A DNA stretch of 62,440 nt, the filler included, from Basidiobolus ranarum (taxonomy: Eukaryota): NCBI GenBank assembly GCA_040143965.1. It is 20 parts of 20 records of this genome, joined end to end, with 100 filler letters (N's around TTAATTAATTAA, not from the genome) between each part and the next. Parts side by side here need not be neighbours in the genome. Positions count along the whole stretch, not along the records: positions 34,466 to 37,491 come from JASJQH010009660.1; 19 more parts are not named here. One strand, 5' to 3'. A program made the position numbers and the translations under genes. A model generated the notes under the pieces. That model had not been told where the DNA came from, ran no database searches, and saw only the letters and a list, made by a program, of their open reading frames with translations. The first letter of the stretch is position 1. Each line of letters begins with the position of its first letter. Positions 14,220-52,555 of this stretch are shown in pieces.

Positions 14220-15580
14220 TTAGGTAGACTGATCATGGAGATATTTAGACTTTGCATAGGATTGGTCCATATGACAATTCAGTTGAGGGAGTGAGTTGAG
14301 TTTAGCATGGCCTTAACACATATATAGTCAAAATCTAGCATGGTATTTAGCTATTCTACTTTTTACCAAGACATCATCCACTTCTCTGCAGAGGAACTTT
14401 TTTAGAATCTTTTTCAAAACTTAATTCAGATAGTTAGAGTTTTTGGGCTTGTGCTAGAAGCCCCACACTTTGTACACATGTTCCTGAGACTTTCCTTTAC
14501 ATATTCTACATTCTGGTTTGGTTACATCTTGACAAAACTATAAATGTCAACTTTCTACTCAATATATTATAAATGAAACCACCAATTTCTCTGATTCTCC
14601 AAACCACTTCCAACAGGCTCCCAAGCACTTAAACAGGATATGAGCCCCAAGCTTGCACTCTCTATAATGTCAACTTCTCAAATTTATGGAACTTTTTTCT
14701 CTTGTGAGAAATTGGATGGAACCAATTATAAAGTTTGGAAAATCAAAATCAAAATGTTGCTGCAAGAAAAAGAACTATGGGATACTGTTGTAGGAGAAGA
14801 AAACAATGCAAAACTATCTGAAACCAAAGTTTTACTCAAGGATAAAAAAGAGTAAACTGCCTCTAACACAATTTGTCTTAATGTTGGAGACCAATAAAAT
14901 TAAGAAGGTATGGAAAGCCTTGAAAGACACCTATTTAACAAGTTCTGCCACCAACAAGATATTTCTAAGAAGATAAATCTTAAACTCAAAGATCAAGCCT
15001 GGAGAAGACATTTACTCACAAATTAATAGAGTTGCTGTTTTAGTGGATAAAATGGAATGCATTGGAGTATCCACCACTGATCAAGATATCATAGTTACAG
15101 TCCTGAATAGTCTGCCACACAAATCTCAGAGTTTAGTAATGGATCCAGAATCAGGAACTGAAAATTTGACCTTAAATTATGTGTCTAGCAGACTTCTGGA
15201 TGAAAATTTATGCAAATCAGGATCCAACCAAAAGAATGAAGAAATGTTTTAATAGGCTATGGGAAACCTTCCTATAGAGGTAAAAGTACTTTAAGAAGTA
15301 GAGTAACACATTCTGTGATTATTGTAAAATAACTGGCCATTTAAGTAAAGATTGCTTTAAAGAATTGCAAAAGAAGAAAAACATACTGAATCTGGAAATG
15401 TGGTTACAACAGAAGCTCACTTGTCCATATTGGCTCTATCAATAACTACCAACAAGGATTCCCAGAAGTGGTATACTGATTCTGGAGTATCCCAACATAT
15501 CATGAATTAAAAACATTGGTTTGTGGAATATGAAGAAATCCCAGTTAGAAAGGTTTTCATGGGAGATGACTGCACATTGG
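14220..15580 (+). mobile_element. Ty1/copia family D: PPT, LTR (14294-14635), PBS, gag and protease (decayed)
   Basis: AGTTGAGGGAGTG before the LTR and GGATATGAGCCCC after it. EKLDGTNYKVWKIKIKMLLQEKELW, CDYCKITGHLSKDC zinc knuckle, WYTDSGVSQH protease. Confidence 0.87.
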
Positions 15581-15680: not shown

Positions 15681-16455
15681 CAATTTAATGATGTTAATTA
15701 AATGGTCAATCCAAAACGGATTAAAATTGTGATGGTTTTCCTATGATAACAATCCTCAAATTTCTGTTAGGGCTTGGTTGGATAGATTGGGATACACAGT
15801 ATTATTGTTTTAGACATGTGGTAATCTATTCAAGCAATGACACATCTACTTGTGGTAGGAAATGTGTTGACTGCAAGTTGGGGATATTTTAGCTGAATTG
15901 TTCATGGAAATTTGCCAATATCCAAGAGCTTATGCTCATTGTATATGGTAACAAGAGTCAGCTATTCACCAAGTGTCAGTTCTATTCAAAATTTCCAATG
16001 TTTAGCATTTTTTCCACCATTAGTTTGCTGGTAAAGCATATTGATGTTGTTGAGTGATGTCTGATCCATGTGGTATGTGAATATGTAGAGACTAAACACA
16101 ACAAGATTCTTGTATTTTTTGATTTTCATTATGGCTTGAATACCAAGCCTAACATATCTAAATAAAGGCATGCATATTAATTTGAATTCCTACAGCAGTA
16201 AACCCAGTAATTTGCCATTCAAAGATTAAATTTTTGCAAAAATTGCCAGAAAATAAATAATGCCTGCCAAATATGAGGATCAATATTCCAACATGTATGA
16301 ATACCATCAAAATATCATCAAGAAGCTGCAATCTCACCATCAAAATACCTGGCAGAATGCAAGCCACTGATATTGTGATGGTGCTCTGATGGTTTGGCAT
16401 TCCCAAGGGGTGGATCCAATTCAGATCAAATCAATTTTATTTTTGCTGGGGTGGG
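15681..16455 (+). mobile_element. Family E subterminal noncoding region
   Basis: Block of about 550 bp (GAGCTTAT...GATCAAATCAATTTTATTTTTG) repeated at 25077-25605, 34680-35205 and 50077-50628. Confidence 0.72.
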
Positions 16456-18268
16456 CCACACAGATCTGAGTGTATCAGCCCAATTTTGATCCATTTTTCT
16501 CATTCCAGAGCACACAAATGGTTGTCTGTGTTGCCTACTATATAGGCAACCTTCACATTGCTTTAAATCTGATGGAATTACAAAATTTAGTCTCCAAACT
16601 ATCTTGTTTTTGATTAAATTTCTCAAAACATAATTCTAGATGACCCAATCACCTCTGCCAGATTTTTCAGTGTAGCTCATCAGCTGTGGCAGTGATAACT
16701 TGTTCATATATTGGCCTAATATAAAGAAGCTTATACAAGTTGTTTTGCTTAGCTCCAGAAGCTACAAAATTTCATTTTGAAACCTGATTCCATAGCCATT
16801 TTGATTCAAATTAAAGCTATATCTTTCTAATTTAGCTTTACTTACTGATAAAAAATTCTTTGCTATCCCAGCCACATATTATTGGGAAAATATGGACTGT
16901 TTAGAGGAACATTATAAAAGTGGAGTTGTGAATTGCTTTGTGAGATAATTATTTACTATCCAGATATGAAGCACTTGTACATTTTGGTGGAAATACCAAA
17001 AGCTAACACTGGGGTTGTGTTCAGAACATCTGTGGGAGTAAAATGAGCTATTTTGGGGCAATTTGGACAAGATTGAAATTTCCAATATCAAATTGCTAAT
17101 TCTCACATTATTTGCATATACATATAATATATGTTCCAATTTGCATTTAAGTGTTATTTGACTAAATAATCTTAACTAACTTATATGTGATTTATGGAAT
17201 AGTTAGGTATATAAAGATAGGGATAACAAATATGATAAAGACAATAAACTTCAACACATATAGCACATTTTTTAGTATTAGATGCATTCCTGCAGAGATG
17301 TCCCCAAGGTCCACTTCAAGGGCTTCTAGTAGCTGGTCATCTCCTATATTAGCCTTCCTTTTTATATCAGTTTTGATTGTGTTAACCAGGATCTTTTGGT
17401 TATAGAAATGTTGAGAAGCTCCAGTGCCAATGTAACATATCCTACCATCTTGCTCAAAGTTCACTGATAGGGCTGATGTCAATAAAGCTTCTTCTTTGGC
17501 TGAAACTTGATTTGCTTGTTGTGACTTCTCATTTTTCTTGTCATTTCTTGATATTGAATCCTTTATAAGATGTCTAGGTTTTTCATAACCATAACATAGG
17601 CCTGGTTTCCTTTTAATGCAACTTTTGAACCTGCCAAAGCTATATTTTTCAGCTCCAGAAAGAGGGAATTCTTCAGATTCTTTTTCCAAATTCTTGCTTG
17701 TGAGATGTTGATCCATTAGTCTTGCTACCAGAAACTCCAAAGTTTACTTGTCAGAGCTTGCTTCCAATGCTGTATTCAAGTTTGAATACTGCTATGGCTA
17801 ATTACTTAGAAGAGTCATAGTTATATTTTCTTCTTGTATAGTTGCAAAAATATTCTCCAGTTGTTTTGTCTATGCTCTCACATTTGCAATATCAGTAATC
17901 ATGCTTTCAGACTTTTCCATTGTTATATCAAAGAATTCTCTTCTGAGAAAGAGTCCATTAGCAAGACTCTTTACTTCATAACACTCTTCCAATAGAGTCC
18001 AAGCCTTATGGGAAGTCTTTGCATGTTGAATATTCACAAGTTGTGGATCTTTCAAACTCTGATCAATGACATTAAATGTCTTCTTGTCTCTTTGCTTGTG
18101 AGCTTCCATCACAGAAAGGTCAGAAGGATCCTTTTCATCTTGAGAGACAGCATCCCAATGCTCCCTATCCTCCAGCATGATTAGCATCTTGAACTTCCAG
18201 AAATTGGCTCCAATTTCACAGTCTTCATATATGCTATAAATCTCAAAGTATGAAGAGAGCTCCTTCAT
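16456..18268 (-). mobile_element. Ty1/copia gag-protease-GAG-pre-integrase (decayed)
   Basis: FWKFKMLIMLEDREHW, LEFLVARLMDQ, CYIGTGASQH, CEGCLYSRQHRQPF. Interrupted by a solo LTR. Confidence 0.87.
16880..17256 (-). mobile_element. Solo LTR, copia family A
   Basis: TGTTGAAG...CCCAATA with perfect TSD CATAT (16875-16879 / 17257-17261). Confidence 0.92.
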
Positions 18269-22103: not shown

Positions 22104-24976
22104 GATAGCAATATCAATTTTGTCAGTTTTACCAATTTTCTCTATTTTCTCAAAACCTCTCTAAATCACCTCAAATTTTCACCCAAGCTTAACAGGCATG
22201 ACAGTTATGACCTAAGCATGTCCAATAGCTCTATTTTATAGTAAACTAGGTATAGTACATATTCAAATCAATAGAACTTTAGTGTGAAAGTCACAAATCC
22301 TAATCCAGTCCAAAACACTTCCACATCCCCTAAACACTTTTATCAGGCTATGAGCCCCAAGCTAGCTGTTAAAGGAATATCTGCCTGTACTATTACCAAT
22401 GTTTTTGCATCCACCAACAAGTTTGATGGTGCAAACTCTCACCTGTGGAAGTTCAAGATGCAAATGGTGCTAGAAGACAAAGACCTTTGGGGATTTGCTA
22501 CAGGAGAAGAAATCAAACCAGAGGGTGCACCAGAAGACATCATTGCCTTTGAAAAGAAACAGAGGAAAGCACTCCCTACATCTTGTCTACAACTCAGAGA
22601 CTCACAATTGAGGCACTACACTCAGCCAAAAACATCCAAACCGCTTGGGAAACACTTGAGAGACTATACAAGACTAAAAAATTGGCTCATAAGCTTTGTT
22701 GTAGGTGAAATTTATTAACATTTCAGATGAACTCTGAAGATTCTATGGCTAATCATGTAAATCAGATAAAAACTATGGTAAATTGGCTCCCATCTGTTAG
22801 AGCACCTCCAAATGACAATGACTTAATCATGACACTATATGGTAGCCTGCCCAATGAATTTGAGAACCACATAATTGCCACAGAATAAAGATCAGAGCTA
22901 TTAACAATGAAATATGTTGGTGCTAGACTTTTGAATGAGGAAATAAGTAGATCTAATTCTCAGCAAAAGAATGCAGATCAGGCATTTTTTGGAACTTTAA
23001 AAGTCCTACAGTCTTCAATCATGGTGCCCCTAATAAGAAATTAATTATCTGCAAGTATTGCAAGAAACAAGGCCATTTAATAAAAGGTTGCAGTAAAGGA
23101 TTGTTGCCAAAAGGCTGAAATCAGAACTAGCAAATCAAGTAAGAGCTGATAGGGATCCTTTTTTAGTGTCTGCCCAAGCAGTGACCCCTAAGGAGAACTC
23201 AAGAGTGTGGTACATTGATTCAGGAGCTTCCCAGCATATATCAAACAAGAAAACTGGTTTTCCAGCCTAAACCCATGCACACAAGGGAGGTCTACCTAGG
23301 TGATGACTATGCACTAGACGCAGTGAGTAAGGGAGTAGTTGTGCTCAACTTATACCAGAATTCTTCTAAACTATCTGCAACTTAAGATAATTTACTCTAT
23401 TTACTAAATATATCCAAGAATCTACTCACAGTAGGCCAAGCAACAACTCAGGGATCAAGTTTTTGTGTTTGGCAAGGCTGGTTGCACTGTCACAGCTCAC
23501 AAGATAAACAAGTTAGTTACTGGGATTAAAACTCTAAATATATAAAAGGTAGAAAACAACAAGCTGCATTCTAGGCATGAAAACCTGGCCAAAACAAGTG
23601 AAGTAAGCTGTCAAACGTGATGTAGAATATTGGGCCACACAGGGATCAGAAGCTGATACAAATAATCTGAAATTGGCTTATTTCAGCCTTAAAAATTTAA
23701 AATATTATCAAACTGGATCAGTGTGAAGATTGTATATATGTAAAACACTCTTTTGTATTTGTTCTAACCAATGTGGGCCCATGAAAAACTTTTCACTTGA
23801 TGGCAAAATATTCCTTACAACCTTTGTTGATGACAAAGCAAGATGTAGTTATGTATTATTTCTGAAAGCCAAGTGTAACTAGGTATTCTTTCTGAAAGCA
23901 AAATTTGAAGCCTTAGCTATGTTCAATCACTACAAAGCAATGGTAAAGAAAGATTCAGCAAAAAAAATCCAGGTACTAAGGGGTGGTAATGGTGATGAAT
24001 ACTGGTCTAAAGACTTAGCCAGTTTTTGTTCTGAACATGGAATTATGCATCAAACAACTTTATCTTATACTCCACAGTATAATGGAGTTGCAGAATATGC
24101 TAACACAACCATAGTGGAGATGGCAAGAGTAATGTCACACAATCAAAAGTTAGATTACTAATATTGGGCTGAATCTGTCTGCACTGCAGTTTACATCATA
24201 TACAAAATTTACTCCATTTGAAGCCCTTGATGGATCAAAACCAAGTGTGGATTGTCTCAGGAGCTTTGATTTCATAGCATATTGCCTAATTCTAGCTCAA
24301 AAATGCTTGAAGTTGGAACCCAAAAGCAGAGAGTGCATATTTCTATGTTACTGCAATGGATTTAAGGCCTGCAGACTGTTAAATACCAAAAATTAGAAGT
24401 TAATCAGGTGAGATGTGTTATTGGATGACAAAGCAAGTTTATAACCTCAAATCTCAGCTTGCAATCCAGAAACAAAATCAGCACTATTCAGGAAGTGTCT
24501 GAAAAATTGCAGCTCTATCTGAGCCCAATTCAACCAAATATCTAACCCTAATTACATCTGAGGATGATTCAAGACCTAGAATATCATCCAGAAGGACTAA
24601 TAAGCCAGGGAACTGGTTGAACACTTCTAATAATGATGTCTTTGCTTATGCAGCATTCTGTGACAAGCCACAGACTCTAGATTAAGCTCCAAAGGGTCCA
24701 GATTTAAAATCATGGGAAAAAGCAATGTCTGATGAGTTTTCTTCACTCCAGGACAGCAAAGTGCAGGTTTTAAGTCCTATGCCATCAGGAAAAAGACCCA
24801 AATGTTGCAGATGGATCTACAAATATAGACAAAGCTGATGAAAATATAAACATGTACAAAGCAAGATTAGTTGCAAAAGGTTTATCCTAGACTCCAGGAG
24901 TTGATCTTGATGAAACCTTTATGCCAGTAAATACGTTTAGCTCCATTAGATCAAACCTGGCACTATCAGCCATCCA
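22104..24976 (+). mobile_element. Ty1/copia family C: partial 5' LTR (to 22345), PBS, gag-protease-integrase-RT start (decayed)
   Basis: ...TTTTATCA then GGCTATGAGCCCC. KFDGANSHLWKFKMQMVLEDKDLW, CKYCKKQGH, WYIDSGASQH, YTPQYNGVAE, YKARLVAKG in copia domain order. Confidence 0.9.
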
Positions 24977-25076: not shown

Positions 25077-28000
25077 AAGAGCTTATTCTCATTGTGAATG
25101 GTAACAAGAGTCAGCTGTTTGCCAAGTGTCAGTGCTATTCAAAATTTCTGATGTTTAGCAATTTTTCCACCATTAGTTTGCAGGTAGAGCACATTGATGT
25201 TGTGAGTTATATCTGATCAGTATAGCATGTGCGTATTGAGAGACTAAACACAACAGCATTCTTGTATTTTTTGATTCTCATTATGGCTGGAATACAAAGC
25301 CAAAAGTATTTAAATAAAGGTATACATATTGATTTCAATTCCTATAGCAGTAAACTCAGTAATTTGCCATTCAAAAATTATATTTTTGTTAAAATTGTCC
25401 AAAATTAAGTAATACATGCCAAATATGAGGATCAGAATTTTAACATGTGTGAAAACCATCAAAATACCATCAAGAAGCTGCCATCAAACCATCAAAATCC
25501 CTGGCAGAATGCAAGCCACTAATATTGTAATGGTTCCATGATGGCTTTGCAATCCAGAAGGGAGGTTCAATCTGGATCAAATCAAATTTATTTTTGTTGG
25601 GGTATTAAAGCTAAGTAACTTTATAAGCATTGACAAGTTGCTTCAGAAAGCTGCTTGAATAGTAACTTTGCTGCATTATTGCTTGTCAAAGACCTTTATA
25701 GCAACTTCATAGTTTTTAGTTAGGGTTGCATCAAATTGCTATGTTGTCCTGCCTGATATTCCCTGGTTGTGATGTTTCTATCCAAATTCTCTAAGGAAGA
25801 ATGCTCAATATTTGGCAAAGTATGCATTTGGGAAGTTGATGGTCTTGATGATGTATCCATCAAACTTTGCTCAACTTTTGACCCACTGTATAACTGGGGG
25901 ATTGTAATCTCTTCACTTGCACTATTGCTCAAAAAGATAAAATCTTGTAATTTGATTATTGAGTCATCATAACTTCAGTTAGTTCCCAACATGTTAATGC
26001 CTTCCAAAGTGGATATTAGATTGCTAGACTGCTCTTCAATTGAGTCCCCTGATCTTGCTGGTTCTTTTCCTTTCCTGCCTGCAGGCTTTTGCTTGAAAGC
26101 CAATTTTGATTGAGATGTTGGATGCTTTTTCATGATATGTAAATATTTGGATGGTGTCCTTGCTATAAGGTAATTGTTTAGAAACAACTTATAATAAGCC
26201 CAAAATGCCATCAATTACCATATATATATTGTAAAAGCCCAAATGAATCATCTGTTACACTCACTCAGAATCAGCTGATGATTTTGATGCAACTTTTCTC
26301 AAATACCACCCTTACATAGTGAATGATTTTTTTTCTATAATATCCTTCACATGACACAATGCAAATACATTGCTAAGCCATGCTATTATTGTCACCAATT
26401 CTTGCAATATGAAAGCCAAGGCTCTATAGGAAAAAAATCACAAGCACAGTACCTGTACAAAGCCACCAGCCACACAAGGCCTGGTGAGTATCAATAGTGA
26501 TAGGTGCACAAAAGAGACTTTAGTTTTGCCCACTGAGTCCATTGGCTGTGTTTTACCTCTAAGTTTGGGTAACACTGCAGGAAGTCAAGACATTATGCAG
26601 TAACAACAATTTTATGATTGGAATGAAGTAGTAGAAGTACAGGTTTGGTCACACCAGTAAGTCTTGAAAACTTTAAGGACATGCTGTTAAAGATTAACCT
26701 TGGTTATTCCAACACAGGTGGCAGTCTATCAGAAGATGAAGAAGTAGGCAACAGCTTTGTTGCAGATTCATTGCTATTGGTAAGCATTGGTCCACCTCTA
26801 ACACTTATAGTAAAGGAAGTAGCTTTGATTATAGAATAGTAGAGAGTTCAGCAGCATTACTATATGCTAATCTGATTAACAGTGTATCAGTAAAATCAGT
26901 GATGGATGGGAGGTACCTGTGTGAAATGTTGCTCCATAGGAAATTGTCAGCATTACTCTATACTAATTGGACTAACAATGTATCAGTAAAATCAATGATG
27001 GATGTAACATGATTGGTCAAAGAGACTTCATACTATTTCAATCATCTGACAAAGGGCTCTTTTCAATGTGCTCATGGGTTTAAATCATGCATGCCAAATA
27101 TGAGGAATAATATTTCATCATGTACAATTGCTGTCATAATACCATTACAAAGCTGCCATCTCACCATTTAAGCAGCTACATCAATCCTACAAAGATGTCA
27201 TAAAAAAATTCCAAGCAAATCCTCATTCACTAGTTAGCACCTCACAGCTCAGTTTTTCGAAAGCATGCATAGGAACACTACCCCAACAGAAACATGAGCA
27301 TTTTTTGCTATTGTACAATGAAATTTCCATTTTAACTTATCTTGGGTTAGCTGTTTGCTCACCAGCATAAAATTGTTACATTAGATTCGATTTTAAGCAA
27401 TATTTCCCTATTCCGGAGTGAAATGTGAAATTCTGGGAAAATAGTTGCACAAGTTTGACTACATTATCAGCTACCAGCACATGTCTCAAAAATGTAACCC
27501 AAATTGTACACATTTACCACTCAAATCATAATTTATCAGTTGTAAAATCCCTAGTTTTCTTGAAATGTTCTCCTGGATATTTTTATAAAGTATCTCACAC
27601 CCAAGGTTTGGGTTGCATCCAACACAAGTTTTTATTTGTGTAACCATCAAAGCACAACATTGTAGTAATGTTGCTGAATCAACATTCTTCCATTTATCTG
27701 ACATATACCCAGGAATATTCTGCTGCACTGTATTGAGTTCTGCCCTGATATCAGTATAGTCAAAAGTAGCTGAATGGCCATCCTCCTTCTATAGATACTT
27801 AATGCATACTTGAACTGTGTTTTTTCATTCATACTTAAAAACATAATTGTTAAGCACTTTTACTAATTCTTTTTATTTTGGTATGGTGACACTATCTGGT
27901 ATACCTTGTGGTGTTTGGGTGGTGTTTAGCTTGCCTTTACATTTGGGGCTAATTTCAACACTTTAAAACAAACCAGTTGAGGTTGGGGAGCCTTAAGTAT

Positions 28001-28207: not shown

Positions 28208-28494
28208 AAGCATTTATACTTTTTGGTGGATATACAGAAAACTAACACTGGGGTTGTGTTCAGAACATCTGTGGGAGTAAAATGAGCTATCTTTGGGGCA
28301 ATTTGGACGAGTTTGAAAATTCCAATATGGAATTGCTAATTCTCACAATATTTACATATATATAATATATATTCCAATTTTCAACTAAGTGATATTTGAC
28401 TAAGTAATCTTAACTAACTTATATGTGATATATGAAATAGTTAGGTATATAAAGACAGAGATAATAAATATGATAAAGACAGTAAACTTCAACA
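28208..28494 (-). mobile_element. Copia family A LTR, partial
   Basis: Matches part of 13831-14214 and ends AAACTTCAACA at 28494. Confidence 0.85.
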
Positions 28495-34149: not shown

Positions 34150-34365
34150 TGTTGAAATAATTTAGGGGGAAATATTGGTCTGGCCAGGAATTGAACCTGG
34201 GACCTCCTTCACTCTAGCAAGGTGCTCTAACCACTGAGCTACCAGTCCTTGTATGCTATGCGTATATTGCTAGGGAACCTTAACCTAGTCTGTCAATGTA
34301 TGGTACTTTGGCATTTCAGCTATACAAGCAACTGATTGGCCTTAGACTTTGTGTTCAGATGCAGT
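34150..34365 (-). mobile_element. tRNA-bearing LTR, partial copy (contig end)
   Basis: Nearly identical and colinear with 35450-35665. Begins TGTTGAAA on plus strand. Confidence 0.88.
34176..34248 (-). tRNA. tRNA-like cassette inside LTR
   Basis: Same 73-nt cloverleaf as 12596-12668 with A and B boxes (GGTTCAATTCC). Confidence 0.72.
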
Positions 34366-34465: not shown

Positions 34466-35301
34466 GTTTCAAAAATGGTAAATAACATCGTGCCGGATAG
34501 TGCCCAATCATGCCAATTTGTGCTGGCACACTTTTTAGCTGGCCTGATCTGGCTCAATAAAATGGAACAAGTCTAACAATCCTGAAATTTTTGTTAGGGC
34601 TACTGGTGGCAGGACATTGATTGACTGCACATCATGGCTATTTTGGCAGAATTCTTTATGGTAATTTGCTAAGGTTCAAGAGCTTATTCTCATCCTGAGT
34701 GGAAGCAAGAGTCAGCTATTTGCCAAGTGTTAGTGCTATTCAAAATTTCAAATATTTAGCAATTTCTTGACTGTTAGTTTGCTAAAAAGCATATTGATAT
34801 TGTTGAGTTATGTCTGATTAGTCAAGTGTGTGCACAAGTACAGACTAAACACAACAAGATTCTTGTATTTTTTGATTCTAATTATGGCTGAAATATAAAG
34901 CTTAAAATTTCTAAATCAAGGCATGCATATTAATTTGAATACCTATAGCAGCAAACTCAGTAATTTGCTACTTGAACATTAGTTTTTTGCAAAAATCATT
35001 GGAAATTAAATAATGGATGCCAAATATGAGGATCAATATTTTACCCTCTAAGAATACTGTCAAAATATTATTAAGAAGCCACCATCTCAGCATCAAACTC
35101 CTGGATGCAATACAAGTCACCAATATTGTGGCAGTTCTCTGATGGTTGTGGAATCCAGAAGGGTGGATCAGATCCAGATCAAATTGTTTTTATTTTTGTT
35201 AGAGTAAATAACTTTGTTCCAGAGAGTGCCAAATCATGCCAATTTGTGCTTGCATAATTTTTGGCTTTCATGATCTGGCCCAACAAAATGGAACAAGTCT
35301 G
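34466..35301 (+). mobile_element. Family E subterminal region with two copies of a putative terminus
   Basis: Shared block, and TGGAACAAGTCT(A/G) at 34563-34575 and 35289-35301, after which similarity stops. Confidence 0.65.
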
Positions 35302-35449
35302 CTAAATAATGTTACTCTATTCACCTAATTTCAACTATTAATAATCTAGTTAGTGCATTGGGATCTAGGTACATCATAATGGGATGACATAGTAATTGGA
35401 CAAGACTTCCTGTGCCAGAAAAGCAATTAGCTGATACACATTGAGATGG

Positions 35450-35731
35450 TGTTGAAATTATTTAGGGAGAAATATTGATCTGGCCAGGATTTGAACCTGG
35501 GACCTCCTTCACTCTAGCAAGGTGCTCTAACCACTGAGCTACCAGTCCTTGTATGCTATGCCTATATTGCTAGGGAACCTTAACCTAGTCTGTCAAAGTA
35601 TGGTACTTTGGCATTTCAGCTTTGCAAGCAACTGATTGGCCTTAGACTTTGTGTTCAGATGCAGTCACCATACTCCATATTTTCCTCTTTTGGAATTACT
35701 GCTTGTCTCACAAGTTACCATACTTTCAACA
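35450..35731 (-). mobile_element. Complete 282-bp solo LTR carrying a tRNA-like cassette
   Basis: TGTTGAAA...TTTCAACA 8-bp inverted termini and perfect TSD GATGG (35445-35449 / 35732-35736). Confidence 0.92.
35476..35548 (-). tRNA. tRNA-like cassette inside LTR
   Basis: 73-nt cloverleaf with A box and B box, ending 26 bp from the LTR terminus. Confidence 0.72.
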
Positions 35732-36177
35732 GATGGCACATTCAAGATGACCATGTGAACAACTAAGAGGGAAAGGATATGATCATACAACCTTTGATGG
35801 AATATGATAAAAACACTCACCATGTGAGCTATTATGGCTAAAAATTGGAATAACATCTGTCTACTGACTACTACTGATGGATATCTACATACCTCCTGGT
35901 GGCTTGGACTGAGATAATTGACTCATGGATAAAACTAATATAAACCTAGTGCCAATACAGTGATTGTACTGCATCTTGCATAGCTCAACTAATACTTAGG
36001 CTGCTAATCATAACACATGACAGATATATCCTTGAGACACTTGTGGAGCAAATTAGTATATACAAAAGCATTCAGAGGCTGTCATACTCTGGCAAGTAAA
36101 GAGCTAATTATGTTATGTTCCATTCTTTGACTAATTTCAAAGGAAACTAAACTAGGTATATTGGGCTACATGCAAGA

Positions 36178-37706: not shown

Positions 37707-37847
37707 GCAACACTAAACATTTGATAGAGTAAGTTTCTTTTGCCAGGTGTCTGAGCTTTTCTCCAATTTTTTGCGATCATCCCATTTATTTTATGAAATG
37801 TCTAATTGATTTCTTTAATTCCCTCATTTTAGATTAAAACACTGTAT
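37707..37847. repeat. Direct repeat of about 140 bp, copy 1 (3' flank of the HAD gene)
   Basis: GCAACACTAAACATT...GATTAAAACACTGTAT, near-identical to 38740-38883. Confidence 0.9.
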
Positions 37848-38521
37848 TAATTGGCCTCCTTCAGTGAAATAGTGTAGTATTCAGAGATAGGATCAAAAAT
37901 AATATTAAGCTCATTAAAATGCTGGATATGAAGAGCTGCACCTACAAGTCTGTCTTTAGTATGTGAAGTTAATATTCCAATAGACTTCATTCCGGCATTT
38001 GAAGCCGCATCAATACCAGCAGTAGCGTCTTCGAACACAACACATTCACTTGGTGCGATGTTCAACTTCTTTGCAGCTAGTAGGTAACCTTCCGGATGTG
38101 GTTTACCATTAGTTACTTCATCAGCGGTAATCAAGATCTCAGGCAACGGGTACCGTTGGTGATTTAAACGAAATTCAGCTACAGGTCTTGAAGCTGAAGT
38201 TACGATGGCCCAAGTGTTCTTAATCAATGAGGGTAGTAGCTCAGGTACACCAACAATAGGTATAACGCCATCAGTGTCAAACCCAGCCCGAGCCTCTAAC
38301 TCATTCACTATCTCGTCTGTGGCCAAGTTTGGAGCATATCTACGTAATGTCTCCACTGTACGTACTCCATGGCAGTTTGACAGTAGTTCCTTTTCGTTAA
38401 TCCCATGGGTTCTGCAGAAATTAGTCCAGTGCTTCTCCACGCATGGAGTACAGTCTACTAATGTACCATCCATATCAAAGAGTAATCCCTTACATTTTAT
38501 AATAGTATTATTAGCGGTCAT
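37847..38521 (-). CDS. HAD-superfamily sugar/glycerol-phosphate phosphatase (GPP/DOG/YfbT-like), intronless
   Basis: FDMDGTLVD motif I, VTSA motif II, GKPHPEGY, VFEDATAGI. Confidence 0.92.
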   Translation of the reverse strand: MTANNTIIKCKGLLFDMDGTLVDCTPCVEKHWTNFCRTHGINEKELLSNCHGVRTVETLRRYAPNLATDEIVNELEARAGFDTDGVIPIVGVPELLPSLIKNTWAIVTSASRPVAEFRLNHQRYPLPEILITADEVTNGKPHPEGYLLAAKKLNIAPSECVVFEDATAGIDAASNAGMKSIGILTSHTKDRLVGAALHIQHFNELNIIFDPISEYYTISLKEAN

Positions 38522-38739
38522 GTTGGAAGGGTTTAGTCAAGTGTACAAGTTAAAGTTGTCCTTTCGTATATTCTAGCTGGTAGGAGAGAATTGTTTGATA
38601 TTTAAACATATTAGTGATGTGACGCTAATGTAATATATGGCACCTTCGCTCTTCCACCAGAGAAAAAGTAGCTACATTAGGAGATATATTTAACTATATA
38701 AGGTAATCATCAAGATACTGTGATATCCAAGTGTTTGTC

Positions 38740-38922: not shown

Positions 38923-39777
38923 TCATTGGCCTATGGTGGATTTCCAAGTATCGGCATTTTCAAAACCATTGAAGCCTTCTCTGTGTTCAAATACAGCACT
39001 TTGAATCTCCTGGTCTGTATTCATGACGAAAGGCCCCATCTGTACTATTGGTTCGTTGAGTGGCTCACCTGCAATAAGGACGTAGTGTGTTTCTTCCACT
39101 GCGACCACGTCCAAAGTACAACCAGGCCTGTCAAGTATAAGAGCCATATGTGCACTTCCAAGTGCTTGGGTTTCGCCAAACTTTGAGCACCCTTTTATCA
39201 CATAAACAAAGCCATTATAATTGTCTGGAATATCTAAACAAATTCTTTCATTCTTATTTTGGTGGATATCCAAATACAACGTAGGAGTTTTGGTAAATAC
39301 ATCACTTTTAACGCCAAATGCTTCGCCAGAGATAATTTTAACGGTTGTTCCGTTTTCTAGAGTTGCTCTTGGTATGTCCTTGTCACGTATTTCTTGGTAA
39401 TTTGGTTCGTCCATCTTCTGAGAACTACGAAGATTCACCCATAGTTGTAAACCATGACACTCAGTTTTTGGCATTTCAGCATGTACAATTCCACGTCCAG
39501 CTGACATCCACTGTAAATCCCCAGAGTTAATTTCGCCTCTATGTCCAGCGAAATCCTCATGCTCAGAAGTCCCTTGCAATACATATGTCACAGTTTCAAA
39601 GCCACGATGGGGATGGTCAGGAAACCCTGAAGGGGGTGCTACCAAAAATTCATCTAAAAGTATAAACGGATCAAGTGTCTCTACCTCTTCACTACCAACA
39701 CTACGCCTGACAGAAGCACCAAATCCTTCAACATGAGGTAGCGCTTCTACAACTTTGATAACTTTACGTTGTCCCAT
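38923..39777 (-). CDS. Pirin family protein, 284 aa, intronless
   Basis: LDPFILLDEF, FPDHPHRGFETVTY, WMSAGRGIVHAEMP (Fe-binding His/His/His/Glu), GPFVMNT. Confidence 0.95.
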   Translation of the reverse strand: MGQRKVIKVVEALPHVEGFGASVRRSVGSEEVETLDPFILLDEFLVAPPSGFPDHPHRGFETVTYVLQGTSEHEDFAGHRGEINSGDLQWMSAGRGIVHAEMPKTECHGLQLWVNLRSSQKMDEPNYQEIRDKDIPRATLENGTTVKIISGEAFGVKSDVFTKTPTLYLDIHQNKNERICLDIPDNYNGFVYVIKGCSKFGETQALGSAHMALILDRPGCTLDVVAVEETHYVLIAGEPLNEPIVQMGPFVMNTDQEIQSAVFEHREGFNGFENADTWKSTIGQ

Positions 39778-39965: not shown

Positions 39966-40615
39966 TTAGAGATTCCCAATTTTTGATTTCCAGGTGTGAG
40001 CTAATTCAAAACCATTAACACTATTCCGATAATCTTGAAACGTTTGTTGAATTTCCTGTTGATTGTTCATGACAAATGGCCCATATTGAGCGATTGGCTC
40101 TTTAATTGGTTCACCTGCTACTAGTACAAAGTGAACTGCACTGTCTTTCGTCTCAATACTAATCTTGCTTCCTTCTTCGTTGAGAGTCAGTGTGTGGTGC
40201 GCTTTGCCGTGAGTGTTCTTGGAGCCAAAGTAACCCTCTCCCTCCAGGATATATAAGAAGCCCTGGTAGCTCTCTGGAATGTCCTGCTCAAGTTTAGAGT
40301 TTTTCTCCACTTTGAAGTCTAGATACATGGTGGGTGTCTTGGTGACTACAGGGCTGGTGACCCCGAATGACTCACCGGCAATCACTTTGATCACTGCATC
40401 AGTCCCAGGTGGCGACACTCTTGGGATTTCTTTGTCAAGCAACTCTTGGTAACGTGGCTCACACATCTTGTCAGCACCACTCAGGTTGACCCACAGCTGT
40501 AGACCATGACATTTGGTTTTGGGCATTTCGGCATGAACAATCCCGCGACCAGCAGTCATCCATTGGAGGTCACCGGGGCCAATCTCGCCTTTATGACCTA
40601 CAAAATCTTCGTGAG
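39966..40615 (-). CDS. Second pirin, 5' truncated by contig end
   Basis: Frame open to contig end: HEDFVGHKGEIGPGDLQWMTAGRGIVHAEMP...YGPFVMN. Confidence 0.93.
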
Positions 40616-41696: not shown

Positions 41697-42779
41697 CAAT
41701 ATTTAGTAGACTAGAAGGTACACTCTACAAATGATCACTCATATGAGCCAACAACAAATCTTTCTAATTCTACAGAACTTGGCCAGGAGTATCATGAAGC
41801 CTACCCAGAAAAACCTGGCCCTATGATGTCTGGAAGCCATCAATAAAGGAGGGAATACTGTCATGATTCTCATCTTGGCATATTCATCTAATGAAAATAG
41901 AATTCTTCTATTATTAGATTATGACATTATTTTTGAAGTTTATTGTCTTTATTGTATTAGTTACTGCTATCTTTTTATGCCTAACTATTTCATGTATCAC
42001 AAATAAGTTAGCTAACATTACTTTGTCAAATATCACTCAACTTCAAATTGGAACCTATTTTATATATATATGTGAATAATATGAGAGCTAGCAATTCCAT
42101 GTTGAAAATCTCAAACCCATCTAAATTGCCCCAGAGATAGCTCATTTTACATCCACAAATGTTTTGAGCACAGCCCCAGTGATAGTTTTCTGTATTTCCA
42201 CCAAATTGTGTAAATGCTTTATTTCTGGACAATAAATAATTATCTCACAAAGCTATTCACAACTCCACTTTTTGAAAGTTCCTTCAAACAGCCAATATTT
42301 TTGCAATAATTATATTGGTTGTGCCATCCTTTCATGGCAATTTTGTATTAGTTCATCCAGGTTACCTTATATGGAAGTCATGTTTTTTGGAACATTCCAT
42401 GAAACCTAACCAATCATGTCATCCCACACAGAGTGTATTTCCACCAAGACCTTCCATGGAAGGTCATCTGATCATCCTTATATCATCCCTCTTTGTATTG
42501 GTCCTTGTAGTCCCAACACCCCAACACTAGAACTAGCTACAGTATATTCTCTATTGAGTATATTATGTTTCACTCTAAAATACCTATATAAGCTCCAGTT
42601 ATTCATTGATAAGTCCTCTGTGTGTCAATGTCAGTATTCAATAAAGATTTTTGCCAAAGTATCTTCCCTGTCCAGTCTTGTCTTGCTTTGTCTTGTCTTG
42701 TGGTCTACACCAAAGTACTCTTCTGCCTTCTAGACTCTTGTTGTTGCTTCCAGTGCTTGTTCAGTTCCTTATTGCAACA
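41697..42779 (+). mobile_element. Ty3/gypsy (chromovirus) family B 3' end: chromodomain, PPT, 3' LTR (41859-42779)
   Basis: QYLVD*KV...YEPTTNL...QEYHEAYPEKPGP, then AAAGGAGGGAATAC, then TGTCATGA. LTR split by a family A solo LTR. Confidence 0.87.
41931..42308 (+). mobile_element. Solo LTR, copia family A, nested in gypsy LTR
   Basis: TTTTGAAG...GCAATA with perfect TSD ATTAT (41926-41930 / 42309-42313). Confidence 0.9.
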
Positions 42780-44181: not shown

Positions 44182-45856
44182 GCACCCTTCTGCTAAATAT
44201 TTGCCTACTGAAGTGCCCAATACAATGTCAGAAGTTTTAGTACCTTTATCCCAAACTAGGAGATCAAATTGGATCAGATATAGCCCTGAGTACTATGTCA
44301 ATGAGTGCCAAAATTGAACCTATGCATGTACAGCTTGAATACATGCACCCCAGACTGTAAAAGAGGCCCTAAATGGATCTCAGATGGCATTTTGGAGATC
44401 TGCAATGGCTGATGAGTATCAGGCTTTGATTGATAATCAAACTTGGACTTTAACCAACTTACATGAGGATAGAAAAACAATATGCTGCCAATGGGTGTTT
44501 AAAGTTAAATACAACTCTGATGGCAATACAGAAAAGTACAAGGCTTGACTAGCAGCCAAAGGCTATCCCTAACCACCATGAATAGATTATACAGAAGCTT
44601 TGCTCCTGTAGCAAAGTTTACTTCAATGAGATTGATTTTAGCAATTTCAGCTAGTTATCAGTTTATTATATAGCAAATGGACATTAAAGCTGCTTTTTTA
44701 AACAGTGAGCTTGCTGAGGAGATCCATATAGAGCAGCCAGATGGATTTGTGGACCCTGAAAACCCTAAAAAAGCTTACAGACTCCTGAAAACACTCTATG
44801 GCTTAACACAAACTCCAAGAGCTTGGAATACTAAGATAGATGCTTCTTGGAAATACTCAAATTCCATAATAGCAAAGCTGACTATAGTATCTACTTCAGG
44901 CCAGATAAGACAAAACCAGCTTTATTAGCATTATATGTTGATGACCTTATTATAGCAACTAATGACTTTAAGACTTTGGGTAAAACCAAAGCCAGCTTAT
45001 CTGCCAAATTCAAAATGACTGATCTTGGTGAACAGACATACTATCTTGGAATCCAAATTGAGATATATAGAACTACTAAAACAGTAACTTTAAACCAGTC
45101 TAAGTATATCCTAGATATACTAAAGAAGTTTAAAATGGAGGAATGTAATCCAGTATCTACTCTAATGGAGGCAAATCTTATCTTGACCAAAAATGGCTCA
45201 AATCAGATGTTTTTAGATTCAAATGAAACTCAGAAATCTTGTTATTGATCTATGGTTTGTAGTCTGATATATATCATGGTTGTTACATGGCAAAACATTG
45301 CGTATTCCTTGGGAGTTATGTGCCAATGTCTTCAAAATTATGGATCCGATCAAATCATAGCATTTAAGCAGATTTTTGAATATTTGAAAGGTAATGTAGA
45401 TCAATGCTTAGAATACACATATTCTAGATCAAACTTTGATCTGATGGGAGATTCAGATGCATATTGGGGAAGAGATATTGAAGCCAGGAGATATACAACA
45501 GGGTACAGATTTCTTTGCTGTAGTGGAGCTATTTGTTGGAATTCAGAGAAGCATCCCACCTTAGCACTTCCAACAACAGAAGCTGAATAAATGGCTACCA
45601 ATGAAGCAACATAAGAAGCAACATTGTTAAGAAAGCTCTTAACAGATTCAGGTTATTCTCAAAATTCACCTACTGAAATATTTCAAGATAATTAAGGTAA
45701 TATGATATTAACTAAAAATCCTTTGTTTCATAATGGAAGCAAACATATTGACACTAAGCATCACTTCATTTGAGAGACCATGGATAATAAGTTTGTTGAC
45801 TTAACTTATTGCTCTATAGAAGACATGATTGCTGATATATTAACCAAACCATTAGC
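44182..45856 (+). mobile_element. Copia reverse transcriptase-RNase H (decayed)
   Basis: WVFKVK, MDIKAAFLN, LYGLTQTPRAWN, LYVDD, MTDLG, DSDAYWG, ALPTTEAE, KHIDTKHHF, MIADILTKPL. Confidence 0.93.
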
Positions 45857-46148
45857 TACTGAAGTTTATTGTCTTTATCATATTTGTTATCTCTATCTTT
45901 ATACACCTAGCTATCTCATATAACACATATAAGCTAGTTAACATTACTTAATCAAATATCACTTAGCAGAAAATCAGAACATATATTATATATATATATG
46001 TAAATAATGTGAGAATTAGCAATTCCATATTGGAAATTTCAAACTCATCCAAGTTGCCCCAAAGAGAGCTCATTTTACTCCCACAGATGTTCTGAACACA
46101 ACCCAGGTGTTAGTTTTCTGTATAGCTACCAAAATGTATAAATGCTTT
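45857..46148 (+). mobile_element. Family A LTR interrupted by a family B element
   Basis: TACTGAAGTTTATTG... colinear with family A until 46148. Confidence 0.83.
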
Positions 46149-46856: not shown

Positions 46857-47028
46857 NNNNNNNNNNNNNNNNNNNNNNNNNNNNNNNNNNNNNNNNNNNN
46901 TTAATTAATTAANNNNNNNNNNNNNNNNNNNNNNNNNNNNNNNNNNNNNNNNNNNNTGTCACAAATTCATGAGAAACGTGTATAATGTTAATAATTTCTA
47001 GCAGTGTAAATGAACCAGAGGTAATTAT

Positions 47029-49286
47029 TTACTGCTGATCGATTTCGAGATCGGGAATCTCGGTTTGGTTGTAGTTCGCAGTTAGGATGGGACGGATGAC
47101 TGATTTAAAGTAGGGAACGGGCTCTTGAGGGTTGTTGGATTTCACTAAATTGAAGTACGCTTCGTAGACGTTGCCATCATATCTACCAAGAGGTGAGTTA
47201 ATAATGTAATCGGAGTAGTTGAATGAATCAACCAAGGGGATGGCATCTGGGCGAATGACTGAGCAGAGGTGGTTCACTTGCTCACGAATAACGGCCATAT
47301 GAGCAGCGGTGAAATATTCACAGCTAAGGAACTCTCCAGCATTTTCTTTGATGCTATGGAGACCATAGAGTAGGCATAATTTAGTGAGTACTTCGCGAAT
47401 GCTTTCTGGAGCTTGACGCACAGCATCGGCGAACTTATTGAATATATATCCAAAGCTGTGCATGCGAGCAGCATGAAGACGTTCAACAGCGCAACTTTCC
47501 AAAGCAGCGTCTTTACTAATGCTCTTAGTCTTAGCATTTTCATAGATATCTGCAGAGATCTTAACGGCACTAGCTGCTACAACACCCCAAGCTTCGGAGA
47601 TGGTCTCAAAGTTAACGATGGAGGCAACATCATCTCCAGGGCAACGGAAAGTACTCAATTTATCTGCCATCTTAAGATAATTGAATCCTTTGGATACGTT
47701 GTTACCACGTTTGATATCGGCATAGCTACTGATAAGGGAACGACCAGTTTGGAGAGTCAAGATGGTATTATCTCCCTCCCAAGTGCACTGAACAGCAAAG
47801 TCAGAGTACATAGATGCTAATCCAGTATAACCGGAATAACCATGACCACCGCAGGCTTGACGACATTGCTCAATGGCACTCAAACAGTTCCAGGTACAGA
47901 ATGCTTTAAGTCCAGCGGTAGTGGCGTGGGTTTCTTTTAGAAGCTCAATGGTTTCGGTCAAATCTTGACCAGGACGGGTATTTTGCATCTGGGACATCAA
48001 CTGATTGTATTGCTTGCTTACCTCCATACTAGTAAAGTTGACAGCAATGGCTTCAGCGAGTAAAGGTAATAAACGATTTTGATGGATAACGTAGTCCAAG
48101 ATCTTTGTCTCGGGTTGCTTAGGATCAGAGGAAAATTGGCGACGAACAGCAGCATAACGAAGTGCAATGGTAAGGGCTTTCTTGGCATAATTTGCACTGT
48201 CACGAATCATCGTAACTCTACCACTAATAAGGGCACCATATGCAAGCTGAGCAAGAGGTGGTTGAATCACCTTTCCGGTGCGAGTTACCTTAGCAAACTT
48301 CATCAACATATTTTGACGAGGAATACGAACATAGGTGAATTGAATCCAACCATTGTCAATACCATCACGTCCCATCTTCTTACCAATATCACCAATGTTG
48401 ATACCAGGTAGTAAGTTGAATGTCTTGGGGTCACGTAGTTGAACAACGAATGGTTTGACGCCGTAGTTCTTGCCCTTGACAATTAATTGAGCAAAGGCAG
48501 TGGTGTGAGTGGCAGTATGTGCTGCACCACCAATCCACCATTTAGTGGCAGTGGTTGTAGGAGTATGAATGATGAATTCATCGGTGGCTTCGTCAAATGT
48601 AGCAGTGGTTTCTAGCGCAGCAACATTAGATCCATGTCCGAGCTCAGTCATGGCGAAACATCCAGTGACACCATTTAAAGCCATGGCACCCTTTTTGACC
48701 CAGTATGCGTACTGGGCTGGAGTAGCCTGGCCCTGAATGGTACCAAAGAATAGACCGCTGTGGACACCCAGTCTGGTATAGAAGGCAGGGTCAACTAAGC
48801 CCATCAGGATAATACGTTTGAGGAAGACTTCAGGAGTTTCACTTGCTAAGCTAGGAAGCACATTTCTAAGTTTGGCCAAGGTTCTCTCTCTCACTTCAGG
48901 AAGAGATAAATTGTAATGGTCATCCATATTCCACAAAGGATCTCTCTCCAGCTCGAACATGAATTTTTCATACAACTAACATTTGAAATAGATCTGATTA
49001 GTACTTAATTCAGAGGGAACTTACTGCAACAGACCAACCTTGGTGTCTTCTTCACTACCATCTAGATAGTATGTCAATTCTCGAATAGGGAAGGAGGGAT
49101 TGGCTCTTTCTGCAGCTAATGATTCGGTAGGTCTATAGATGTTAGGTTAGTATCACGGGCAAGATACAACAGTGTCGAGAATAATGCTTACGTAGGAGTT
49201 TGAATAGGTTGACGAGCCTTGACTTGTTTTTTGGCCTCGAGGTGTGACTTCACTGAAGCGATACGACTTTCGGTATTAGGAGCCAT
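47029..49286 (-). CDS. POX1: Peroxisomal acyl-CoA oxidase, 3 exons, 711 aa
   Basis: Exons 49192-49286, 49039-49132, 47029-48975 (2136 nt), GT-AG introns with TACTAAC/TACTAAT branch points. CFAMTELGHGSN, KWWIGG, CGGHGY, TWEGDN. Confidence 0.95.
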
Positions 49287-50076
49287 GATGGATTTATGCT
49301 TCGCAAGGATCGAGGGTGAATATGGAGAGTGTGATGTGAGAGTACTAACTTAACCAAGTCTACGTTAGGCAGGGAAGCTTTATACGTATCTTAGATGAGG
49401 GGAATTGAGGTGGATGCGAATTCAGATGACAAAGAAAAAAGCATATACAATGAGGCAGAGTAACCAACTAGTCACACTGATTGGTATAATTCGTGATCCA
49501 AAATAAATTTCGATATAAATCCCCTAATGGCTGGCCAATCAAACAGGATCTATCATTTGGGTGGCAATCCCTCCTTTCGGTGCTAGTCCATAGCTGACAT
49601 GTGAGAGCCGGGGTTTTTACAGTTTTGTAACGATCATATGGTCTACCAATTCGATCCGAGGATGCCAACATCTCAGTCATGTGAAAGGGTTTGAGGCGAT
49701 AGTTTGATTATGATTTCCATTAGTCATTGCCTTCAATCCCTGAGAAAATAGACCAAGCTTTTGCATCTGAATTAGGCTGTGCTGCCTGAGTGATCATGGC
49801 GATGAAACAGCCTGCCTTTTGTTGGAGGCCGCTTAGAGTTTTTCGAGCGTGAATCTAAAATTGTCATGTCAAGGCTTACAATGGTCGTATGTGCGAGAAA
49901 TTGTGGAATTCTGGTGAAACCATTGTAGCGCTATTAAATCGAGTTAACCAGATGGGTACTAACGGCCGCTATATTGNNNNNNNNNNNNNNNNNNNNNNNN
50001 NNNNNNNNNNNNNNNNNNNNTTAATTAATTAANNNNNNNNNNNNNNNNNNNNNNNNNNNNNNNNNNNNNNNNNNNN

Positions 50077-50628
50077 TATTGGCTAAATTCTTTACGGAAA
50101 TTTGCCAAAATCCAAGAGTTTATTCTCATTGTGAACAGTAACAAGAGTCAGCTATTTGCCAAGTGTCAGTGCTATTCAAAATTTCAGTTGTTTGGCAATT
50201 TTTCCACCTTTAGTTTGCTGGTAAAGTATATTGATATTGTTGAGTTATGTCTGATCAGTCAAGTATGTGCATATGTAGAGACTATGCACAAAAAGATTCT
50301 TGTATTTCTTGATTCCCATTATGGTTAGAATACAGAGCCAAAAGTTTCTAAATAAAGGCATGTATATTAGTCTAAATTGCTATAGCAGTTAACCTAGTAA
50401 TTTGCCATTTGAAAATTAAATTTTTGCAAAAATTGCCAGAAATTAATAACACATGCCAAATAAGAGGATCAATATCTTAACATGTACAAATACCATCAAG
50501 AGACCACTATCACATCATCCAAATCCCTGGCAGAATGCAAGCAACCAATATTGTGATGGTTTCCTGACAGCTTTGTGCTCTAGAAGGGTGGATCCAATCC
50601 AGATCATATTGATTCTATTTTTTTAGGG
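50077..50628 (+). mobile_element. Family E subterminal block
   Basis: Homologous to 15895-16450 and 25077-25605. Confidence 0.7.
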
Positions 50629-52555
50629 CATCTGAGCCCCATTTGACCAAAATTGCAGTCCCAACTATATCAGAGGATGATTCAAGACCCAGAAGTTTGT
50701 CCAGAGGGAGAAATAAGCCAGAAAACTGGTGGAAAACTTCCAATGATGATGTATATGCTTTTGCAGCATTCTGTGACAAGCCACACACTCTAGATCAAGC
50801 TCCAGAGTGTACAGAATCAAAATTATGGGAAAAAGCAATGTTTGATGTGTTTTTTTGACTTCAGGAAAATAAAATGTGGGTTTTAAGTATTCAACCATCA
50901 GGCAGAAAGCCAATAGGTTGCCAATGGTTCTACAAAGTCAATAACAATGCTGATGAGACCATGGAAAGGTACAAAGCAAGATTAGTTGCAAAATGTTATT
51001 CCCAGACTCCAGGGGTTGATTTTTCTGAAACTGTTGCTCCAGTAGCTAAGTTTAGATCCATTAGATCAATCCAGGCACTCTCAGCCATCCATACCTTGAT
51101 TTACATCAAATGGATGCAAAAACAGCTTTTATAAATGGAAATCTAGAAGAAGAGATCTATATGGAGCAACCAGATGGATTTGTTGACCCAAAACACCCTG
51201 ATATGGTCTGTAAGCTGTAAAATTTACTATATGGACTGAATCAAGCACCCAGGGCATGGTACCACAAGATAGACTCCTAATTGGAATCACTCAAATTCCA
51301 AACATGCACAACATATCACAGTATTTACATCAAAACAACCTAAAATAGTATCCTTATCTTGACACAATAGGTGGTTGACTTGATCATAGCCACAAATAAT
51401 TAAGAAGCACTTTATCAAACAAAAAACTGCTTATCAAACCAATTTCAGATGACTGATATGGGTGAATATGTTGAAATTAGGTAAATAGAAACTCAGTATT
51501 TAGTAGTTAGTTTATTCATATTCCAATTATTTAGCACTCAATTCAGTCATTCAAAAATGTGTGTTTATTGCCTTAATTGATAGAGATATCAATTAGATTA
51601 CTTTTACCAATTTTCACTATTTTCTCAAAACTTCCCCAAATCACCTCAAATTTTCATCCAGGCCTCACAGGCATATTTGTTATGATCTAAGCACATCCAA
51701 TTGTTCTATTTCATAGTAAATTATAAATGGGGTATAATCAATTCAGTAAAACTTAAGTGTCTAATTCACAAATCCAAATCTTGTTCAAAACACTTCTAAT
51801 TCCCGTAAACATTTTTAAACAGGTTATGAGCCCCAAGCTAGCTGCTAAAGGATTGTCTACTAGTACTATTACCAACATTTTTGCATCCACAGAGAAGTTT
51901 GATGGTGAAGACTTTCACCTTTGGGAGTTCAGGATGTAAATGGTGCTAGGAGGCAAGGACCTTTGGGGATTTGTTATAGAAAAAGAAATAGAGCCAAAGG
52001 GACCACCAGAAGCTATCCTTGCCTTTTACAAGAAGCAGAGGAAAGCACTCTCTACACTTTGTCTACATCTCATAGATTCTCAATTGAGGCACATACAAGC
52101 AGCCAAAAACATCCAAAATGCTTGAAAAAAACTTGAGGGACTATATGAGACTCAAAGTCTGGCTAATAGGCTATATCTTGGGCAAAAATTATTCTCAATT
52201 CAGATGAATGCTGATGACTCTATGCTTAATCATATAAATTGGATACAAACTATGGCTGATCCACTCTCATCCATTGGAGCACCTCTGAATGAATATGACT
52301 TAGTCATGACACTACTTGGGAGCCTGCCAGACCAGTTAGGGGACCTCATAATTGCAATGGAATCAAGATCAGGGCCATTAACAAAGGAATAGTTGTGTGC
52401 CAGACTTTTGAATGAGGAATTGAGTAAATCTGTTTCCCCATCAAAACAACCTAAAATAGGATCCTTATCTTGCACAATAGGTGGATGACTTGATCATAGC
52501 CACAAATAATTTAGAAGCACTTAATCAGACAAAAAGCTGCTTATCAAACCAATTT
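50629..52555 (+). mobile_element. Copia family C: RT fragment with a second, internally deleted copy (LTR 51469-51821, PBS, gag) inserted
   Basis: ERYKARLVAK, APVAK. TGTTGAAATTAGG...TTTAAACA then GGTTATGAGCCCC. Gag to about 52440, then a jump to an RT segment (52441-52555) that repeats about 51330-51445. Confidence 0.85.

Follow-up and report, generated by a model that had tools for sequence, protein, structure and literature searches.

A tRNA-like sequence inside a solo LTR of Basidiobolus ranarum: a candidate Helenus-type, Pol III-driven element

A 282-bp unit in the genome of the fungus Basidiobolus ranarum has the anatomy of a solo LTR, carries a tRNA-like module within it, and shares its termini with Copia elements that reside in the same sample of the genome, together with local Copia machinery that includes primer-binding sites (PBSs) matched to the anticodon loop of what we take to be the initiator tRNA. 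The solo-LTR reading, taken by itself, we regard as highly likely. Helenus elements (TRIMp3) are TRIMs with a tRNA-derived sequence in their LTRs (Kojima 2024, PMC10886601, in the sections drawn on here), and by analogy with them we lean modestly toward the view that the unit is the LTR of a Helenus-type (TRIMp3), Pol III-driven, non-autonomous element of B. ranarum. From the same comparison, and by analogy with Cassandra, we infer a two-LTR, non-autonomous structure, a sense orientation of the tRNA-like sequence, transcription by Pol III and mobilisation in trans. The window, that is, the whole stretch of DNA analysed, consists of 20 contigs of 3,013-3,039 bp each, placed longest first and joined with N/TTAATTAATTAA/N spacers into 62,440 bases, of which 60,540 are genomic once the spacers are set aside. 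Since 20 separate contigs were joined, the adjacency of contigs in the window is meaningless.

Anatomy and copies of the 282-bp unit

The sole complete copy (copy 1) occupies positions 35450-35731 and is assigned to the minus strand, the strand of its tRNA-like sequence. Its ends, TGTTGAAA (35450-35457) and TTTCAACA (35724-35731), are of the TG...CA type and form a perfect 8-bp inverted repeat, and it is flanked by the target-site duplication (TSD) GATGG on the left (35445-35449) and on the right (35732-35736), the two being a perfect match. An earlier note on this DNA had described a unit of this length with these termini and this duplication, and had called it an integrase-made solo LTR. The first description was reproduced in full, and the second is borne out by the TG...CA ends, the 5-bp TSD and the agreement of the ends with those of local copia elements, to which we return below.

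BLASTN and nhmmer searches of the 20 contigs located exactly two more copies, 96-98% identical to copy 1; beyond these three, the nhmmer search with the unit returned just one match, with an E value of 1.5. Copy 2 lies at 34150-34365 on the minus strand (tRNA-like sequence at 34176-34248) and is identical to copy 1 at 208 of 216 positions, and copy 3 lies at 12547-12694 on the plus strand (tRNA-like sequence at 12596-12668) and is identical at 142 of 145. Both are partial because the window is made of joined contigs: copy 2 stops at unit position 216, where its contig ends, and copy 3 is cut by the start of its contig. In all three copies the exact TGTTGAAA terminus is where similarity ends, and the flanks beyond it are unrelated; the opposite terminus is visible in copy 1 only (one of three). 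These are the near-identical copies on unrelated contigs of which the earlier note had spoken, and their differing flanks agree with that description.

A degenerate copia gag-protease region is the insertion site of copy 3, as had also been proposed. The region that adjoins it is matched by an 83%-identical paralog (15074-15481 / 15400-15580), which runs uninterrupted through the DSG protease motif and lacks the insert of copy 3. By sequence comparison, this paralog comes closest, in this window, to an empty site for that copy. The unit is a mobile sequence. No repeat in the window is younger than its family, with copies that are 96-98% identical versus 66-95% for other repeat pairs, and its density is three copies in 60.5 kb. 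Contigs end at two of the three copies.

The 20-contig window holds one solo LTR and two contig-cut LTRs of this family, with no second LTR, PBS, polypurine tract (PPT) or interior. Outside the window, an exact scan with a 27-mer from the tRNA-like sequence gave no match in metagenome, prokaryote genome and viral contigs, a 29-base pattern with two degenerate letters gave none in metagenome contigs, and a 49-residue open frame that leaves the far end of the unit drew no candidate in a protein collection search.

Most contigs of the window are mosaics built from repeats, with 66-95% identity between them. The contig that bears copy 1 carries no gene of its own, and it also contains two 97-bp direct repeats (34478-34574 and 35204-35300, 85% identical). 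The segment of about 600 bp between them recurs at 77-85% identity on three other contigs (15846-16445, 25077-25604 and 50079-50626), and repeats and segment may together form another short composite repeat. A repeat of about 160 bp is found on six contigs at 79-90% identity (8758-8913, 14049-14214, 17095-17257, 28335-28494, 41933-42092 and 45860-46020) and extends to about 290-385 bp in some copies. One contig (37847-40613) has tandem pirin paralogs on the minus strand (38923-39777 and 39966-40613) and a HAD-type hydrolase (37847-38536), every ORF being uninterrupted. Another (46957-49976, 3,020 bp) has an intron-less acyl-CoA oxidase ORF of 648 codons on the minus strand (47029-48975), with 100% identity to a B. 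ranarum protein and 87-90% identity to five B. meristosporus paralogs; these sequence matches point to an ACOX family that is multi-copy in the genus Basidiobolus.

The tRNA-like sequence

The tRNA-like sequence of copy 1 spans 35476-35548 on the minus strand, that is, positions 184-256 of the 282 when the unit is read in the sense of the tRNA. It is 73 nt long with an AGA anticodon, and was recognized by ARAGORN and by the Rfam tRNA model, which scores it at 55.6 bits in copy 1 and at 57.8 and 58.4 bits in the other two copies against a gathering score of 29. The box A region (35531-35541, minus strand) reads TAGCTCAGTGG and contains TAGCT...TGG, and the box B region (35487-35497, minus strand) reads GGTTCAAATCC with GGTTC conserved. 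From the 3' end of the tRNA-like sequence to the LTR terminus at 35450 there remains a 26-bp tail (35450-35475, minus strand), which has no G on the tRNA-sense strand. These results reproduce the 73-nt cloverleaf with intact A and B boxes, 26 bp from a terminus, that the earlier note had put forward. In none of the three copies does a T run in the tail exceed three, so that the cassette, in contrast to an ordinary tRNA gene, is without a terminator of its own.

In the cmscan alignment of copy 3 all 71 model positions are covered, with two non-standard pairs, 3-70 and 31-39, the four bases of which are invariant across the alignment of the three copies. The variable loop is 5 nt. Three substitutions distinguish the copies within this sequence. 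They either fall in the D-loop or T-loop or turn a G-C pair into G-U, and they are too few to prove selection on the tRNA-like sequence. The minimum-energy fold of the sequence with its tail is no more stable than its shuffles (z = 0.35), and thermodynamics alone thus adds nothing.

Class II serine tRNAs have a long variable arm, for which reason the AGA-anticodon sequence is not a credible tRNA-Ser. A genuine tRNA-Ser gene is contradicted by the 5-nt variable loop in place of that arm, the two non-standard stem pairs and the lack, in all three copies, of a run of four T within the unit after the tRNA that could act as terminator. The Rfam scan also reported sub-threshold matches to "Plastid-ycf2 5UTR RNA" at 12596-12669, 34175-34248 and 35475-35548; these are an artefact, being the antisense of the tRNA-like sequence, and at 25.6-31.9 bits they fall short of the gathering score, 65.7. 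No 5S rRNA match was found by Rfam in the window.

A profile search gave three tRNA-like matches in the window, every one within a copy of the unit, and the Rfam scan found no tRNA or tRNA-like sequence outside the unit in the window even at E values up to 1. The suggestion that the tRNA moves with the LTR holds on this count, as none of the matches is free-standing. A strong tRNA score in several copies is also what might be expected of a tRNA-derived SINE, or of a genuine tRNA gene that has been dispersed, with no LTR involved. We consider this very improbable, and the SINE was rejected on anatomy: read in its own sense, the tRNA begins only at position 184 of the 282 and is thus no 5' head, a tail that is A-rich or made of simple repeats is lacking, and the unit has the TG...CA ends common to copia LTRs and a 5-bp TSD.

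Resident Copia elements, shared ends and orientation

Copia LTRs in the window begin with TGTTGAAATTA and end in ...TAAACA, ...TTAACA or ...TATCA. They are 321-353 bp long, 70-89% identical to one another and free of tRNA-like sequence, and their families start at 51469, 30056, 59101, 13815 and 14295. Two of them served as comparators. The first is a 5' LTR at 51469-51834 on the plus strand, which runs from TGTTGAAATTA to AAACA and is followed directly by the PBS GGTTATGAGCCCC. The second is a solo LTR of a copia family at 58781-59101 on the minus strand, which starts with TGTTGAAATTA and has a perfect 5-bp TSD, GGTAG, on either side (58776-59106). PBSs with the sequence GGTTATGAGCCCC or one-mismatch variants of it stand directly after LTR ends at 13453-13465 (minus strand), 14636-14648, 22346-22358 and 51822-51834. 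At two of these four sites (14636 and 22346) a copia-type gag (Retrotran_gag_2, DUF4219) lies just 3' of the PBS, and a copia-type RT (RVT_2) is encoded at 44835-45248, on a different contig from the PBS and gag sites. The best match to this RT fragment, 74% identical, is on a metagenome contig. The complement of GGTTATGAGCCCC contains the loop CUCAUAA with the anticodon CAU, and from published description and general knowledge we take this loop to be that of the initiator tRNA. Priming from a half-tRNA at tRNA-iMet's anticodon loop is described for Drosophila copia, Ty5 and rust Copia (PMC10886601, in the portion used here).

The exact 11-mer TGTTGAAATTA has six sites in the window, namely the left end of the unit and five further LTR or LTR-like repeat starts, in keeping with the earlier proposal that the termini match local copia. 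With up to one mismatch allowed it has 14 sites versus 4.7 expected, a number reached by none of 100 shuffles. The likeness is confined to the ends. When the unit was aligned with eight copia LTR copies in both orientations, none of the 16 alignments of the LTR body stood clearly above 200 shuffles, and the score of the best was reached by 8 of the 200. Helenus LTR bodies are likewise dissimilar to those of their presumed Copia helpers, according to the parts of PMC10886601 considered here. Given that the unit shares ends, TSD length and solo-LTR habit with resident Copia, it is very probably a solo LTR integrated by copia, as far as sequence comparison can tell.

Perfect 8-bp inverted ends with a TSD would equally describe a MITE, here one whose terminal inverted repeats measure 8 bp and whose duplication measures 5 bp. 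A 5-bp TSD is, however, unusual among the common fungal DNA-transposon superfamilies, which counts against this reading, and a duplication of the same length flanks the copia solo LTR in the window. Furthermore, the inverted ends are exactly the copia LTR ends that recur in the window on at least five more LTRs or starts of LTR-like repeats, and no transposase-bearing partner was seen. The MITE was rejected on anatomy, and we give it the least credence of the explanations weighed here, slightly less even than the SINE or dispersed tRNA gene.

The role of the tRNA-like sequence depends on its orientation in the LTR. The 26-nt ends of the unit were compared with seven copia 5' ends and seven copia 3' ends, the own family of each query being left out. 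As controls, five of five copia LTRs were oriented correctly, with scores of 2.5 to 10.5 for the true orientation versus -7.4 to -11.5 when flipped, a separation of 14-19 points. For the unit, the score is 7.0 if the tRNA is taken as sense and 8.3 if it is taken as antisense. True copia LTR ends span both values, and the ends of the unit are too symmetrical to discriminate.

Other features of the unit point in different directions. All 11 bases of the conserved copia U3 start recur at its left end, a match that would make the tRNA antisense, and in the 183 bp outside the tRNA the GC skew, read in the tRNA sense, is +0.14 versus -0.26 to -0.40 for the sense strands of six of six copia LTRs, a difference that leans weakly toward tRNA antisense. 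Runs of four or more T, on the other hand, are missing from the tRNA-sense strand over all 282 bp and number two on the opposite strand, and the sense strands of the six copia LTRs have 2-6 such runs each (6/6); set against those LTRs, the T-run count weakly favours the tRNA in sense. The earlier note had drawn attention to this strand difference. As a fact of the sequence it was reproduced, but its significance was not: TTTT is absent from a given strand in 18% of the 282-bp windows taken elsewhere in the window and in 44% of shuffles of the unit, and the absence of such runs is weak evidence, not significant.

These observations leave room for a second account of the solo LTR, in which it stems from a copia-type element of the ordinary kind, transcribed by Pol II and either autonomous or a conventional TRIM, that has captured a tRNA or tRNA-derived sequence. 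The captured sequence would be a passenger, possibly antisense near the U3 edge, with no role in the synthesis of genomic RNA. The two end scores that fail to separate the orientations, the left end that matches a copia U3 start, the antisense lean of the GC skew and the T-run count that is not significant are all compatible with such a passenger. The copies are also too young, at 96-98% identity, for conservation of the boxes to prove selection, and tRNA-like pieces occur in "not a few" Repbase LTRs, of which the short ones alone were named Helenus (PMC10886601, as drawn on here). Against it, a complete tRNA-like sequence with both boxes and no terminator of its own, in three of three copies, is the layout of a Pol III-driven retroelement, and the youngest repeat family in the window (96-98% versus 66-95%) fits an element that is strongly expressed. 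In Cassandra, Helenus and Ajax it has been proposed that the cassette acts as the element's Pol III promoter, and we assume that it lies in sense there. We rate the passenger account as a real possibility, yet clearly the less likely of the two. A sense orientation of the tRNA in the LTR appears fairly likely to us, a judgement that draws mostly on the complete cassette without terminator and on the apparent recent success of the family.

Proposed mechanism and relation to known elements

If the unit belongs to a Pol III-driven element, transcription would begin in the 5' LTR, at its tRNA-like sequence, which would mark the start of R. Pol III would then read through the 26-bp tail, which is terminator-less, into the PBS and a short interior. 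The transcript would next cross the 183-bp U3 of the 3' LTR, T4-free in this sense, and proceed into the second copy of the tRNA-like sequence or beyond. The element RNA would be primed, reverse-transcribed and integrated in trans by resident Copia proteins, with the Copia integrase recognizing the shared LTR ends and leaving 5-bp duplications such as GATGG. Recombination between the LTRs would finally remove the interior and leave a solo LTR such as copy 1. A near-intact cloverleaf might be cut by tRNA-processing enzymes, which would sever the genomic RNA, and we speculate that the two fixed mismatches might lessen this cleavage.

A bolder version of this proposal, which we think unlikely although well above the SINE and the MITE, is that the element is a Pol III-driven TRIM of independent origin, in a fungus that diverged early and lies outside Dikarya, with an R-U5 made up almost wholly of a tRNA cloverleaf (73 nt plus the 26-nt tail). 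The first cDNA would in that case be essentially a copy of a tRNA. A cloverleaf with two fixed mismatches could act as the promoter, and it might also evade tRNA processing, or gain entry into Copia particles by resembling the primer tRNA. If, alternatively, ancestry is shared with the "Ser-AGA" Helenus of rusts, Helenus would have to be much older than the proposed age of about 130 million years, or more prone to horizontal transfer than that age implies.

Regardless of its origin, an LTR of this kind has practical consequences. LTRs that carry a tRNA-like sequence inflate tRNA gene predictions, all three tRNA calls in this 60-kb sample being LTR-borne, and they break short-read assemblies, as at the two copies that end contigs. 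Both effects matter for the annotation of the large, repeat-rich genomes of Basidiobolus. Should complete copies confirm the reading of the unit as a Helenus-type LTR, the range of such elements would widen from Dikarya (rusts and a few mushrooms) to take in Basidiobolus, and the finding would support a repeated origin of Pol III-promoted LTR elements wherever Copia or Gypsy helpers meet tRNA-like sequences.

The unit may be set beside several known systems. With SINE2 it has in common a tRNA-like Pol III promoter that lacks its own terminator, but in the unit the tRNA lies away from the 5' end, a tail is lacking, and the ends and TSD are of LTR type. With resident Copia it has in common the LTR start TGTTGAAATTA, an end in ...AACA/ATCA and the 5-bp TSD; resident Copia differs in the LTR body, in its length of 321-353 bp, in having no tRNA-like sequence and 2-6 sense runs of four or more T, and in being far more diverged. 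Cassandra, a 5S-bearing TRIM of plants (known to us from Kojima's text, in the part used here, and from general knowledge), resembles the unit in the small-RNA Pol III cassette inside its LTR. Ajax, a 5S-bearing TRIM of nemerteans, resembles it in the LTR-borne Pol III cassette and in the 5-bp TSD, again as far as the portion of the source used here goes. Both differ from the unit in that their cassette is 5S and not tRNA-like, and in that their hosts belong to another kingdom.

The closest likeness is to Helenus. In the sections of PMC10886601 on which we draw, Helenus elements are described as 311-1263 bp in overall length, with two LTRs, a short non-coding interior, a PBS and a PPT, and with boxes of the form TRGCY...YGG (A) and GGTTC (B). 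Their fungal hosts are Pucciniales and three Agaricomycetes (Agaricus, Coprinopsis and Amylostereum), in which they have 5-bp TSDs, Copia-type PBSs (to tRNA-iMet's anticodon loop) and many solo LTRs, and are thought to be mobilised by Copia (PMC10886601). Large numbers of "tRNA-Ser-AGA" and other tRNA predictions in GtRNAdb are Helenus LTRs and unlikely to be working tRNAs (PMC10886601, same sections). A 5-bp TSD flanks the unit, which we read as a solo LTR, and the A and B boxes of its internal tRNA-like sequence fit the published pattern; the anticodon is AGA, in line with the frequent calling of Helenus LTRs as "tRNA-Ser-AGA" in that account. The LTR-level features of fungal Helenus given in those sections, namely a tRNA-like sequence within the LTR, boxes A and B and a 5-bp TSD, are all present in the unit, the comparison being with the published description. 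Helenus is known as a two-LTR element, whereas the present family is known here from LTRs alone.

The host also differs, Basidiobolus being a non-Dikarya fungus absent from Table 1 of PMC10886601. The Helenus screen, as described in the part of that paper used here, started from Repbase seeds and went on to related genomes, and Basidiobolus was therefore probably never examined. Full-text searches brought up no account of Helenus-like elements in Basidiobolus, and a later paper that cites Helenus mentions it in passing. To have called the unit an undescribed family, as the earlier note did, is fair at the level of family and host only, as the kind of element (Helenus/TRIMp3) was described in 2024. 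By analogy, these comparisons make the unit a probable Helenus-type member in a new host lineage, and it would be the first report of Helenus outside rusts and mushrooms.
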